NCBI GenBank assembly: GCA_963713825.1
Contig: CAVQNG010000005.1
Span: forward strand, 192,001-256,000
DNA length: 64,000 bases
Direction of reading: 5' to 3'
Source: an uncultured Acidobacteriota bacterium
GTDB lineage: Bacteria > Acidobacteriota > Thermoanaerobaculia > Multivoradales > JAHEKO01
This document shows positions 25,239 to 28,481 of the stretch, one piece after another. The position numbers and the translations under genes are program-made. The stretch's first letter is position 1. Every line of letters begins with the position of its first letter. The notes under the pieces are model-generated. The model saw nothing but the letters and a program-made list of their open reading frames with translations, was not told the DNA's origin and did not search any database.

Positions 25239-26684
25239 ATGTCGCAAGACGTCAGTGACCCCGAGCTGAGGGCAGCCCTCCACAGGGTTGCCGACATGGT
25301 TTCCGACTATTTGCAGGATGTCGGCCAGTACCCGGTGCTGCCGAGGGTCCAACCCGGAGAGGTGGCTTCGATGCTGCCGAGCTCGCCGCCGAGCGAAGGG
25401 GAGTCCCTGGACGCCATTCTCGACGATTACGCTCGAGTGATCGAGCCCAATGTCACCCACTGGAATCATCCGGGTTTTCTCGGCTACTTCTCGATCACGG
25501 GTTCGGGCCCCGGCATTCTGGGCGAAGTGCTGTCAGCCGCTCTGAATGTCAATGCCATGCTGTGGCGCACGTCTCCAGCCGCCACCGAGCTGGAGGAACG
25601 CGTCTGCGATTGGCTGCGGCAGATGCTGGGACTGCCGGACGACTTCAGAGGCCATATCAACGACACGGCCTCGATCAGCACCATGCTGGCCCTGGCGGCA
25701 GCGCGCCACGCGCAAACGGATCTGCAGGTCAGGGACCTGGGACTGGCGGGCAGGCCCGAAGTTCCTGAATTGGTCGTCTACACCAGCGATCAGGCCCATT
25801 CCTCTTGTGACAAAGCCGCCATGACCCTGGGCCTCGGCCTGGAGCACGTTCGCAGGATCGAGTCCGATGGGCAGTTCCGGATGCGCTTCGACTCCCTGGT
25901 CGAGGCAATCGATGCCGATCGGCGTGCGGGTCGCCGTCCCATGGCTGTAGTGGCGACGGCGGGGACGACTTCGACAACGAGCGTCGATCCCATCGATCGC
26001 ATTGCGGAGCTCTGTCGTCGAGAAGGGATCTGGCTGCATGTCGATGCCGCCTATGCCGGCAGCGCGGCGATTTGCCCCGAGCTCCGGGAGCAATTTTCTG
26101 GCTGGGAAAGAGCCGACTCGATCGTCTTCAACCCGCACAAGTGGCTGTTTACACCGATCGATTGTTCAGTGCTGCTGATGCGCGACGTGGATACCCTGCG
26201 GGAAGCCTTTTCCCTGGTGCCCGACTACTTGAAGACCGACGAGGAAGGTGTCACCAATCTGATGGATCTCGGGGTTCAGCTGGGTCGCCGGTTTCGGTCC
26301 CTGAAGCTCTGGATGGTCATTCGGACCTTTGGAGTCGAGGGCCTGCAGGTGCGGATCCGTGAGCACTGCAGGATGGCCAGGGATCTGGCTTCGATGATCG
26401 AGAGCGACCCCGACTTTGTGGTTGCGGCCCCTGTACCGTTCAGTGTTGTCTGCTTTCGGTGGCTGGTAGGGGACTCGCCCGAGCAGCAGGATCGGCTCAA
26501 TAAAGCGCTTGTCGACGAAGTCAATGCGCAAGGCCCGGTGTTTGTCACCTCCGCGGTGCTGAAAGATCGATACACGCTTCACCTGGCCATCGGCAACCTC
26601 AAGACGACCGACGAGCACATCCAGAACGCCTGGCACATCATCCGCACCTCAGCCGATAGCGTTTCAGCAGCTCAGCGGCGCTGA
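25239..26684 (+). CDS. Group II PLP-dependent (aromatic L-amino acid-like) decarboxylase
   Basis: Motifs THWNHP, SPAATELE, AHSS..KA, HVDAAYAG, NPHKW, LGRRFRSLKLW. Confidence 0.93.
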   Translation: MSQDVSDPELRAALHRVADMVSDYLQDVGQYPVLPRVQPGEVASMLPSSPPSEGESLDAILDDYARVIEPNVTHWNHPGFLGYFSITGSGPGILGEVLSAALNVNAMLWRTSPAATELEERVCDWLRQMLGLPDDFRGHINDTASISTMLALAAARHAQTDLQVRDLGLAGRPEVPELVVYTSDQAHSSCDKAAMTLGLGLEHVRRIESDGQFRMRFDSLVEAIDADRRAGRRPMAVVATAGTTSTTSVDPIDRIAELCRREGIWLHVDAAYAGSAAICPELREQFSGWERADSIVFNPHKWLFTPIDCSVLLMRDVDTLREAFSLVPDYLKTDEEGVTNLMDLGVQLGRRFRSLKLWMVIRTFGVEGLQVRIREHCRMARDLASMIESDPDFVVAAPVPFSVVCFRWLVGDSPEQQDRLNKALVDEVNAQGPVFVTSAVLKDRYTLHLAIGNLKTTDEHIQNAWHIIRTSADSVSAAQRR

Positions 26685-26695
26685 CCAGATTCAGG

Positions 26696-27116
26696 GGGTT
26701 GAGGCGTCCGGTCGTACCTCCCGGCCGATCTTTGCAGGCTTGGGTCCTGGGTTCTGAACTGATATCCGACTACTTGTTGAGGTCCGTCCGAGTGGTCCGC
26801 CGGGGGACGGCGTCGGCTACTCATGCTGCGACGGGGGGCCGCCACCTCGTCTCGTCATCGCGCCCTTATCTCCTGTGGCCTATGAAGAATCGTTGCGGCC
26901 GCGCTCGACTCGGCGCCCCCTGTCGAACCGGCCCGAACGAACTTCATAGGCACCGATAAGGGGCATAAGGGCTAGGGGCGGCTAGGGGTTGTAGGGGAAT
27001 GGCGAGGGGGCCTAAGCGGACTCAAAGGCGGGCCGGAGGGAGCGACGGGTATCAGTTCAGAACCCAACCCAAGCCTGCAAAGACCGGCCGGGAGGTACGA
27101 CCGGACGCCTCAACCC
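26696..27116. repeat. 421-bp palindromic element (MITE/REPIN-like or structured RNA)
   Basis: Arms 26696-26768 and 27046-27116 are reverse complements apart from 2 substitutions and a 2-nt indel. Internal hairpin at 26863-26962. The structure is directly seen; its identity is unknown. Confidence 0.85.
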
Positions 27117-27307
27117 TAGTAGTAGTCGGAGCAGGAAAGGTAGTAGCCGCACTGCGGATGTGGGCAGTAGAGCTTGCACTTGCGCTGCGCGAGCGTGCTG
27201 CCGCAGTTGGGACAGGTCATCATCGTCTCTGCGCTCGAGGAACTGGCTTGGCGCCGGTCAGGTGGCTGACGCGGTTGGCTCGTCTCTACTCGTCTGGGAT
27301 AGCGCAC
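27116..27307 (-). CDS. Small Cys-rich zinc-finger protein (start uncertain: 27307, 27223 or 27220)
   Basis: CPNCG....[21 protein letters not shown], a recognisable small conserved Cys-rich pattern. Confidence 0.75.
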
Positions 27308-27434
27308 GTGGCTCGAGGTTAGGGTCGCAGGCTCATCGAGTCAAGCCGGTGGGCCCATCACCTCTGGGTGATACTCTGCATCGAGGTTATTGGCGGCAGA
27401 TGCTCGATCGGTCGAGTGGCATGGAGGATCAGCG

Positions 27435-28481
27435 GTGAAAGCACTCGTTCTTGCTGGAGGCAGCGGCACTCGTTTCTGGCCGGTGAGTCGACGACAGAGG
27501 CCGAAACAGCTACTGTCTCTGGAAGGTGGCCCCAGTCTTCTGCAGGCAACGGTCGACCGACTGCAACCGTTGGTGGATCCGTCGCAGGTCTGGGTCTGCA
27601 CGACGGAGAAGCTCAGCGCTCAGGTTCGTCAGCAGTTGCCTTTGGTGCCTGAGGAACAGGTCCTGGCGGAGCCCGCTGGGCGCAACACGGCGCCGGCCAT
27701 TGGTTGGTCTCTGCACAGCATGCCGGCCGACGAGCGGGACGACGTGGTGCTGATCCTGCCGGCGGACCATCGAATCGAGGACCGTGAGGCCTTTCTGGAA
27801 ACTCTTGAATCGGCGGAGAGAATCGCCCGCGAAGACGACCGGGTGATGACACTGGGTGTCCAACCAACAAGACCGGACACCGGCTATGGATACCTCGAGC
27901 TCGGGCCCCTGATCGAGCCGGAAACGGGTTTGCGCCAGGTTGTGCAGTACAAGGAGAAGCCGGACCAGGCCACCGCCGACCGATTCGTCGAGAGTGGTGA
28001 CTATCTTTGGAATGCGGGCATTTTTCTTTTCCGCGCCGGACGCCTGCTCGAGCTGCTCCAGGTCCATCAGCCCGACCTCGCCCAGGGCCTCGGCGAGATC
28101 GAACAACGACCGGATCGAATCGTCGAGCTCTATCCTCGGCTGCCATCGATATCGATCGACTTCGGTGTCATGGAGCACCTCGACGAAGTCTTCACTCTGC
28201 CACTCGACTGTGGTTGGAGTGATTTGGGCTCCTGGGAGGCCTTGGCGGAGATTCTGCCGCGGGACGAGAACGGCAATGTCACCAAGGGAGATGTCGTCTC
28301 GATCGATTGTCATGGCAGCGTTCTTTTTGCCGATGCAGGCACGGTCGCCGCCCTGGGAGTCGACGGCCTGGTGATCGTCAAGACGGGCGATGCGGTGCTG
28401 GTCGTTCCCAAAGACCGTACCCAGGAGATACGGAAGATCGTTGCCGCCCTCGAAGATCGAGGGCTGACGCGGCTTCTCTAA
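27435..28481 (+). CDS. manC: Mannose-1-phosphate guanylyltransferase
   Basis: Motifs LAGGSGTRFWPVSR..PKQ, EP.GRNTAPA, PADH, EKP, WNAG.F, WSDLGSW. GTG start with GGAGG RBS. Confidence 0.93.
   Translation: MKALVLAGGSGTRFWPVSRRQRPKQLLSLEGGPSLLQATVDRLQPLVDPSQVWVCTTEKLSAQVRQQLPLVPEEQVLAEPAGRNTAPAIGWSLHSMPADERDDVVLILPADHRIEDREAFLETLESAERIAREDDRVMTLGVQPTRPDTGYGYLELGPLIEPETGLRQVVQYKEKPDQATADRFVESGDYLWNAGIFLFRAGRLLELLQVHQPDLAQGLGEIEQRPDRIVELYPRLPSISIDFGVMEHLDEVFTLPLDCGWSDLGSWEALAEILPRDENGNVTKGDVVSIDCHGSVLFADAGTVAALGVDGLVIVKTGDAVLVVPKDRTQEIRKIVAALEDRGLTRLL

Follow-up and report, generated by a model that had tools for sequence, protein, structure and literature searches.

The 421-bp rod-shaped palindrome at positions 26696-27116 of a 64,000-nt stretch of DNA from an uncultured Acidobacteriota bacterium (class Thermoanaerobaculia; contig CAVQNG010000005.1, positions 192,001 to 256,000; hereafter the window) is best explained as a full-length copy of a genus-specific, non-coding, composite interspersed repeat, a reading to which we assign a probability of roughly 0.55. 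According to this reading, each of the two convergent genes that border the rod carries its own hairpin unit resembling repetitive extragenic palindromic (REP) sequences, a core repeat with terminal inverted repeats (TIRs) lies between the two units, and the long duplex would be a by-product. The rod shape would then arise because the two gene-end hairpin units face each other across the TIR-bounded core. That the rod is a member of a repeat family, and not a unique functional RNA, is nearly certain. [quoted passage not shown] The second proposal holds in substance: the element is multi-copy and consists of an inverted REP doublet around a TIR-bounded core, an arrangement that occurs 12 times. 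The TIRs it named were the wrong ones, and neither target-site duplications nor a cognate insertion sequence (IS) or RAYT transposase were found.

An inverted-repeat search of the window recovered an outer arm pair (26696-26745 and 27067-27116; 50 nt, 98% complementary), an inner arm pair (26748-26768 and 27046-27066; 21 nt, 95% complementary) and a 10-nt inverted pair, GCCTATGAAG/CTTCATAGGC. A 2-nt CC is present in the left arm only and has no counterpart on the right. These two arm pairs bear out the predicted near-perfect arms of 73 and 71 nt with two mismatches and the CC indel. When the whole 433-nt stretch was folded as RNA, the energy was -285.1 kcal/mol, compared with -189.9 +/- 6.6 kcal/mol for shuffled sequences (z = -14.3), and none of 100 shuffles folded as well. 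Folded as single-stranded DNA, the same stretch gave -153.3 kcal/mol (z = -13.8).

The rod is not alone in its genome. The genome from which the window comes (G000) has 38 contigs, totals 5.4 Mb and is 96% complete; there the 421-nt element gave 73 matches, with local BLAST placing it at 122 sites and an iterated nhmmer profile returning 286 hits, so that the copy-number check called for earlier came out as multi-copy. Matches cover the element unevenly, and three modules stand out from this: ~49 nt at the outer end of either arm, a block of ~165-200 nt in the middle, and a G-rich tail. The central block corresponds to a core of which G000 holds about 83-85 copies, or 83 when counted without overlap. 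An upstream REP unit is present at 26 of the 83 cores and a downstream unit at 45; all 26 upstream units are in what we term the T orientation (defined below) and all 45 downstream units are in the inverse, anti-T orientation. Unit offsets from the core cluster at about -58/-105 upstream and at about +85/+135 downstream. Both arms are present at 12 cores including that of the window, only the downstream arm at 33, only the upstream arm at 14 and neither at 24, and the composite is about 400-420 bp long in five of the 12 full copies. Since the units sit at fixed positions and in fixed orientations around the cores, the 421-bp rod is a recurrent unit. The inverted unit doublet expected of a REPIN is thus seen in the 98% complementary 50-nt arms, in the 12 T-core-anti-T copies and in 23 pairs of neighbouring T..anti-T units, and the core (163-165 bp, ~83 copies) is small, non-coding and multi-copy as a MITE would be.

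Some contigs of G000 overlap in content, with copies of the same region that are either identical or 97-98% identical. Core copies on contigs C13, C14 and C16 are 100% identical and these contigs carry the same region; C26 and C27 are 98% identical over 21 kb, and C3:974-979k also has a copy of that region. Such small contigs may reflect either true duplications or strain variants that were assembled together, and because of them near-identical repeat pairs are overcounted. Beside REP units and cores, the same intergenic mosaics contain one more repeated palindromic module (..GGGGACCTCCAGGGGGTTCTTGCAGCGGAAGGGAGGATAGCC..GGGGGCCCCA..), at L060:2720-2800 (G005), at L052:~1720-1800 (G003), and at C5:159k and C4:338k of G000.

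The modules of the window copy are listed in Table 1. The left and right units match the REP covariance model R1 at C5:218692-218743 (68.5 bits) and, on the minus strand, at C5:219069-219120 (64.3 bits), respectively. The element starts 12 nt past the decarboxylase stop, and its last base overlaps the stop codon of the 63-aa minus-strand open reading frame (ORF); the ORF coordinates thereby confirm the spacing and the abutment that had been predicted. In an alignment of copies, only the outer 50 nt of each arm proved to be shared as a unit by the whole family. None of the other aligned copies has the inner 21-nt arm pair; they have ACGATTCAACCCC where the window copy has GTATCAGTTCAGAACCCA, and this copy-specific arm lengthens the palindrome of the window copy. 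The inner pair had been taken for the TIRs of a nested element; at the level of the family, the TIRs are the two core ends. The number of G-rich heptamers downstream of the core differs between copies.

Table 1. Modules of the palindromic element and its bordering genes (window positions)
Feature	Position	Strand	Evidence and remarks
PLP (pyridoxal phosphate)-dependent decarboxylase, upstream convergent gene	25239..26684	+	481-aa ORF; Pfam PF00282, 351 bits
Left REP-like unit, T orientation for the decarboxylase gene	26696..26745	+	GGGTTGAGG, hairpin CGTCCGG/CCGGCCG, then ATCTTTG..GGCTTGGG
Pre-core linker (TCCTGGGTTCTGAAC...), including copy-specific inner arm 26748-26768	26746..26778	+	Partly conserved upstream of many cores
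Core repeat, 167 bp, non-coding	26779..26945	+	Imperfect ~30-nt TIRs: 5' 26779-~26806, 3' 26916-26945
Conserved 3' tail (..GGCACCGAT..), then G-rich heptamers of the TAGGGGC / TAAGGGC type	26946..27010	+	Downstream of core in most copies
Degenerate REP-like remnant (..ACTCAAAGGCGGGCCGGAGGGAGCGACGG)	27011..27045	+	Aligns with the first of two tandem downstream units (~+85) of other full copies
Copy-specific inner arm, inverted copy of 26748-26768	27046..27066	+	Other aligned copies differ here
Right REP-like unit, T orientation on the minus strand, directly after the minus-strand ORF stop	27067..27116	-	Outer arm pair
Small Cys-rich (CxxC...CxxxxxC) zinc-ribbon-like ORF, downstream convergent gene	27116..27307	-	63 aa; ORF and translation

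A dedicated profile search found 248 REP-like units in G000. In the T orientation, a unit of ~50 nt consists of GGGTTGAGG, a short G+C-rich hairpin and then ATCTTTGAGGGCTTGG. The flanks GGGTTGAGG and TCTTTGAGGGCTTGG are kept across 140 aligned units; the stem between them is variable but compensated. Covariation was measured on an alignment of 50 distinct units from G000 and its relatives. Here 89.2% of the cells in the unit stem were paired, compared with 80.9% in shuffles, and none of 500 shuffles reached the observed value. Six of the seven stem pairs have changes on both sides, and sliding the partner by 1-3 columns lowered pairing to 15-52%. These data show that the REP hairpin is under selection for pairing.

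Positions relative to genes were read for 140 of the 248 units from crude gene calls of our own, which scored codon usage as log-odds and gave 4281 ORFs over 89% of the genome. Intergenic placement was found for 125 of the 140, and 102 face the 3' end of a gene in the T direction, at a distance of up to 20 nt in 60 cases and of up to 60 nt in 88. Seen from its other side, a unit has a gene end within 20 nt in none of the 140 cases and within 60 nt in five. Convergent spacers hold 62 of the 140 units (44%), compared with 833 of 4243 (20%) in the background. Among neighbouring units, 96 pairs share an orientation, 94 of which are abutting or overlapping head-to-tail tandems; the inverted pairs are T..anti-T in 23 cases and anti-T..T in none. 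Inverted neighbours never take the reverse order, and we conclude that it is the preceding gene that decides how a unit is oriented. The units stand right behind stop codons and always read hairpin first, then TCTTTG, along the direction of that gene. Of the features of an intrinsic terminator, the G+C-rich hairpin and the sense placement after a gene are present, and the T-run has four T in eight positions, below the five used by our simple terminator scan. Judging from position and orientation, the units probably act, or are tolerated, as 3'-end hairpins, that is, as weak intrinsic terminators or stabilisers of mRNA 3' ends.

The core is delimited by imperfect inverted repeats of ~30 nt, AGAGGTCCGTCCGGGTGGTCCG..CAGGGGG and CCCCCTGTCGAACCACCCGAACGAACCTCT, which form a long-range helix in the consensus fold of 40 copies. 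Measured between the TIRs, it spans 163-165 bp in 118 of the 136 strand-wise matches, and a single 17-nt motif, with at most three substitutions, fits both core ends at 68 loci. In a variant with an extra double hairpin of ~58 nt the core measures 205-213 bp. Subfamilies exist among the cores, and 39 of 83 lie between convergent genes, where they are enriched. Coding potential was ruled out: variation by codon phase is flat (0.137/0.131/0.131, with no 3-nt periodicity), 204 of 227 deletions are of 1 nt, and stops occur in every frame. The absence of a credible ORF that had been noted for the window copy thus extends to the whole family.

The repeat family is confined to one genus. The core is present in all five other species of the genus, and it was found in none of 19 other genera of the family (one genome each) and in none of 16 genomes from other families of the order. 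The REP covariance model has 45-133 matches per congener, and in 39 genomes of 19 other genera it gave one marginal match only (E = 9e-4). One of the genomes compared, G006, is the only genome of genus g2 and is flagged as unpublished; when it is left out, the comparisons cover 18 other genera for the core and 38 genomes for the REP model, and the Y1 transposase family considered below is found in 17 of 19 genera. Among the matches listed for the exact core-end pattern in species representatives, 78 of 84 loci lie in five Thermoanaerobaculia/Acidobacteriota metagenome-assembled genomes (MAGs); the other six are single hits in Actinobacteria records that look like chance. No core match was found on viral contigs or plasmids, and literature searches returned no description of repeats of this kind in Thermoanaerobaculia.

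We compared the site of the rod, and those of other copies, between species of the genus. In four congeners with a readable orthologous site, each has a different mosaic there. A T unit lies ~10 nt after the decarboxylase stop in G001, G003 and G005, as in G000; in G004 no T unit is present at that place, and other sequence and a truncated core come first. The G003 site consists only of GGGGGTCGAGG-hairpin-CTTCAACCCCC, i.e. a left flank, a hairpin and the complement of the left flank. An a-palindrome-a^c arrangement is described, in an excerpt of Bertels & Rainey (PMC3337134), as the form left by REPIN excision, and the G003 site matches that form as a single instance in one relative. At 15 copies of relatives with usable flanks, G000 has a core at 13 (two partial) and REP units only at two, and the comparisons of filled and empty sites yielded no pair with clean insertion boundaries. 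Copies at the same locus are mostly no closer to each other than random paralogs, whose median identity is 0.819: seven of 11 rank 23rd-77th of 83. Two same-locus pairs are 98-99% identical, one (98.8%) beside flanks of 79-83% identity and the other beside flanks of 87-98%. Where two orthologous spacers were fully aligned, only the core was alignable, with sharp ends, and the two species carried different subfamilies. We read these comparisons of sequence as pointing to an expansion that would have preceded the species split; afterwards, copies at the same sites would have been re-inserted or replaced, and the family would now be barely active, if at all.

In the explanation that we favour, the family would have spread as non-autonomous mobile DNA in the ancestor of the genus and may have persisted since then because copies were re-inserted or replaced at intergenic sites that they already occupied. 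The most plausible route of mobilisation would be REPIN-like, with a Y1-type (HUH) enzyme acting in trans on single-stranded, hairpin-bearing DNA without duplicating the target; we hold this route only tentatively, at somewhat less than even odds. No copy-specific target-site duplication was seen at the core ends in 70 of 136 listed strand-wise matches read by eye, nor at the outer ends of the 12 full copies. G000 has four Y1_Tnp (IS200-like) genes of 311-363 aa, at loci L031-L034 (C3:1031k, C5:483k, C3:1296k and C3:1152k). Inverted repeats at three of the four share AGGTGCCACCC, which is followed by a T-run at two of them; this 10-mer has 60 exact sites in the genome, compared with about 30 expected, and 15 of the 60 are intergenic. 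Relatives of the Y1 protein are multi-copy in other genera of the family, reaching 23 copies. Near the rod itself, Pfam searches of nine ORFs between 22534 and 32736 gave no match to a transposase or reverse transcriptase family, in keeping with the original prediction, and the neighbours in this interval are housekeeping genes.

Several observations weigh against this account. No cognate enzyme was found: none of the 248 REP units lies within 6 kb of any of the four Y1_Tnp genes, these genes have a TIR motif of their own with no relation to either REP unit or core, and no TnpB (PF07282) was found in the 96%-complete G000. The Y1 family occurs in 18 of 20 genera and the repeats in one, so that the enzyme family does not track the repeats. 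Elements of the IS608 type have an orientation bias with respect to replication direction; the orientation of the cores is unrelated to GC skew or replication direction (29:28 and 12:10, p = 0.81). The commonest arrangement of units is the tandem direct array and not the inverted doublet. Moreover, units in doublets are not better conserved, with 37.45 bits for 34 units at both-arm cores compared with 36.7 bits for 138 solo units (Mann-Whitney p = 0.82), and units at one-arm cores have a median of 38.3 bits (n = 76; Mann-Whitney p = 0.55). In G000 a search for a-palindrome-a^c footprints found only two loose matches to the pattern, neither of them convincing. Only one independent pair of G000 cores is at least 95% identical, and for this reason there is no sign of current activity. 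The core is ~88% identical to its consensus (median 0.884), although between species, with the exception of a single pair, flanking coding DNA reaches only 74-88% identity. A long-dead neutral element should have decayed further, so the core may be under constraint. The simple scan found no terminator site in 26400-27400, the unit tail having four T in eight where the scan needs five. Finally, the REP super-families of Di Nocera 2013 (PMC3733652) are marked by a conserved tetranucleotide, GTAG or CGTC, where the palindrome begins or ends, and the unit has no GTAG; its consensus in the 50 aligned units is GGCGnCCG, with no base reaching 50% at the third position of the would-be CGTC.

A classical MITE is the rival that fares best. 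The core, or the whole 421 bp, would then be a deletion derivative of an IS with a DDE transposase, moved by cut-and-paste on its TIRs, the autonomous partner having been lost or left unassembled. Such an origin would suit a non-coding core of 163-165 bp with imperfect ~30-nt TIRs, inside a composite whose own TIRs measure ~50 nt, and it would suit the high copy number, the intergenic sites, the enrichment between convergent genes (39/83), the subfamilies, and the many copies of relatives at contig ends, where repeats tend to be found. However, no copy-specific target-site duplication was found at the core ends or at the outer ends of the 12 full copies, conserved sequence runs past the core TIRs on both sides, and the core has no viral or plasmid match. 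A long element with the core TIRs was not found in G000, where 15 left and 12 right ends are unpartnered and the only two long-range TIR pairs are an unrelated IS inside a copy and a mosaic of copies. We regard the classical MITE as unlikely.

Two insertions within cores were considered as possible parents and rejected. The first is an IS110-family element with a 327-aa ORF (PF02371, 88.8 bits; PF01548, 67.8 bits; locus L035), present once, at C26:21300-22670, inside a variant core and next to the ~58-nt double hairpin of the IS's own upstream end; from this position and this hairpin we take it for an IS that has probably jumped into an existing copy. The second, a 1.3-kb interruption of a core at C3:766600-767940, is an unrelated IS with inverted ends of its own and a 347-aa ORF, which we take from the look of its sequence to be an integrase-type DDE transposase. 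This second IS sits within the 58-nt hairpin of a core copy, which makes three levels of nesting. The ~58-nt double hairpin recurs between core positions ~122 and ~138 in at least six other cores and at about ten further places, and two of its matches reach into the IS110 upstream region. The pattern suggests that IS110 may have inserted site-specifically into the core and that the IS body was subsequently lost.

Another possibility is that selection maintains the core or the rod as a structured module of RNA or DNA with a function, such as a small RNA, an RNase III-processed element of a 3' untranslated region or an insulator between convergent genes, and that copy number reflects function and not selfish spread. 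In its favour, most core columns from ~84 to ~255 are 80-99% conserved over 99 copies at the median identity given above, and the core is the only alignable intergenic segment at orthologous loci, where its ends are sharp. The strands also differ: under RNA parameters, 51 of 57 copies have the stabler fold on the complement of the core strand shown here (median -90.8 kcal/mol, compared with -79.8 for the other strand; p = 3e-10; z of -4.45 and -2.77, respectively, relative to mononucleotide shuffles), and under DNA parameters 55 of 57 do. On the other side, RNAalifold returned almost no structure for 99 cores aligned with hmmalign, and for 40 cores aligned with MAFFT it returned 36 pairs, nearly all invariant, with a covariation term of -0.31 kcal/mol. 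No compensated double change occurs in 32 of the 36 pairs, and in three of the other four such changes are limited to 1-3 of the 40 copies; because the columns are so conserved, the core pairs say little about structure. The one pair that covaries clearly, 77-146 (CG in 30 copies, UA in 10, broken in none), speaks for a selected fold, but it could be two linked subfamily markers. A de novo helix scan of the core gave many alternative short helices and was uninformative. The ~100-nt inner hairpin of the original prediction does pair in the window copy; it pairs better there than in the family, where 70.6% of cells are paired compared with 70.8% in shuffles, 307 of 500 shuffles reach the observed value, and covariation lends it no support.

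Moreover, the orientation of cores relative to neighbouring genes is unbiased (17 vs 17), the simple scan found no promoter- or terminator-like site, and a search of 26300-27500 against Rfam 15 at E up to 10 returned noise only, the best three matches scoring 12-14.3 bits against gathering thresholds of 50-75. The restriction to one genus, and the different subfamilies at the same locus, likewise argue against a conserved function. The novel large structured RNA of the original prediction is thus not borne out, and we consider a functional module of any of these kinds improbable. In one version of it, the core would be not dead selfish DNA but a single-stranded module of RNA or DNA under selection, read from only one of its strands and kept or re-acquired at about 80 intergenic sites per genome. 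The ~88% core identity amid turnover, the different subfamilies at one locus and the better folding of one strand fit that version, to which we nonetheless give little credence; such a module might serve some recombinase as a guide-like or recombination-site element, or it might insulate convergent genes from each other after domestication.

A non-mobile origin, in which the units are ordinary gene-end terminator hairpins made alike by convergent selection and local tandem duplication, and in which the palindrome is a chance result of two genes converging, is very improbable. It would account for the strict orientation of the units, their closeness to stop codons, the tandem arrays and the compensated variable stems, but the flanks outside the stem are conserved in 140 units beyond any need of a hairpin, the units keep a fixed spacing to a 164-bp core of which there are about 83 copies, their tail falls short of the T-run threshold, and 19 sister genera lack the family although transcription has to be terminated in them too. 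As for an assembly fold-back, whose probability is negligible, no listed contig spans the whole stretch and positions 26956-27037 are uncovered in the four public runs compared, but it is excluded since the two sides join different unique genes and the asymmetric interior is homologous to about 83 other copies, 11 of them also full-length. The public runs listed for the sequence included no RNA run. Short Logan contigs from different studies link gene and left arm (26443-26725, 0 differences), left arm and core (26696-26821), and right arm and zinc-ribbon gene (27087-27265, 0 differences); they confirm the outer junctions only, and one public run that bridges the junctions may be the source sample. 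The palindrome is real and not an artefact.

Set beside known systems, the composite repeat is a new mosaic family resembling REPINs, MITEs and bacterial interspersed mosaic elements (BIMEs), with an unusual nested and fixed geometry, and not a new kind of system. The BIMEs of E. coli are extragenic mosaics in which REP units, or palindromic units (PU), alternate or stand in tandem together with other conserved motifs, and they are frequent at the 3' ends of operons. The present family is likewise an extragenic mosaic of palindromic units and other modules; it differs in that its extra module is a 164-bp element with TIRs of its own, in that the sequences are unrelated, and in its phylum. Accounts of the REPIN/RAYT systems of Pseudomonas fluorescens SBW25 and enterobacteria (PMC3337134, PMC3116915) describe an inverted REP doublet hairpin that is extragenic, of high copy number and free of target-site duplications, all of which applies here as well, as do the Y1 (IS200-like) genes in the genome; the a-palindrome-a^c sequence at the orthologous site of a sister species may be a remnant of the same kind. 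However, the spacer between the units is 321 nt long here and holds a conserved TIR-bounded core, whereas in the part of PMC3337134 that treats SBW25 spacers run from ~34 to 110 bp and no two are identical. The doublet units of Pseudomonas REPINs are better conserved than singlets, which they are not here, and the present family further departs from the REPIN pattern in the dominance of head-to-tail tandems, in having no REP unit beside a Y1 gene and no co-occurrence with Y1, and in lacking the GTAG/CGTC tag.

Similar comparisons can be made with the Correia elements of Neisseria, with ERIC, and with BOX, RUP and SPRITE of Streptococcus pneumoniae, which the excerpted text of PMC10969869 presents as small, non-coding, intergenic and nested repeats with TIRs and stable folds. 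According to the same excerpt, SPRITE resembles a rho-independent terminator, and Correia TIR duplexes in transcripts are substrates of RNase III, as the original prediction had proposed for the rod. The present family differs from these in that no target-site duplication or related IS was found, and in that the T-run of the unit is weaker than that of a canonical terminator. The TIRYT genes of Acidobacteria (Di Nocera et al. 2013, PMC3733652, in excerpt) belong to the same phylum, and the four Y1 genes with flanking inverted repeats, with AGGTGCCACCC at three of four loci, are reminiscent of them. The difference lies in the Y1-gene TIR motif, which is unrelated to the REP unit or the core and forms at most a small family (60 sites vs about 30 expected). 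The same excerpt states that repeat families and tyrosine transposases are often uncorrelated.

For annotation, these results mean that genomes of this genus, each with about 250 hairpin units and about 83 cores, should have these sequences masked as repeats, lest they be taken for genes or novel RNAs. The repeats also explain the breakage of MAGs of the genus into many contigs, because the copies of relatives are often at contig ends. A REP/REPIN-like system is thereby described from Thermoanaerobaculia (Acidobacteriota), with no transposase assignable to it, and features that are usually found apart are joined in it, namely tandem arrays of gene-end hairpins, inverted doublets and a nested TIR-bounded core at fixed spacing. 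If the units are in truth portable terminators, or if the core is under selection, the family would be a useful natural case of repeat domestication.

The flanks of the rod and the parent chromosome gave some further observations. The orthologous flanks on the decarboxylase side are 74-83% identical in four congeners, and a fifth has a truncated match. The 63-aa minus-strand Cys-rich ORF has no Pfam match; it is 79% identical in nucleotides in G003, whereas BLAST did not detect it at the corresponding sites in G001, G004 and G005. Its likely start is an ATG that gives MMTCPNCG..., for a product of ~35 aa. On contig C3 of G000, GC skew, taken in 50-kb bins, is about -4% at 750-800 kb and about +4% at 800-850 kb; the change of sign near 800 kb is probably a replication origin or terminus.

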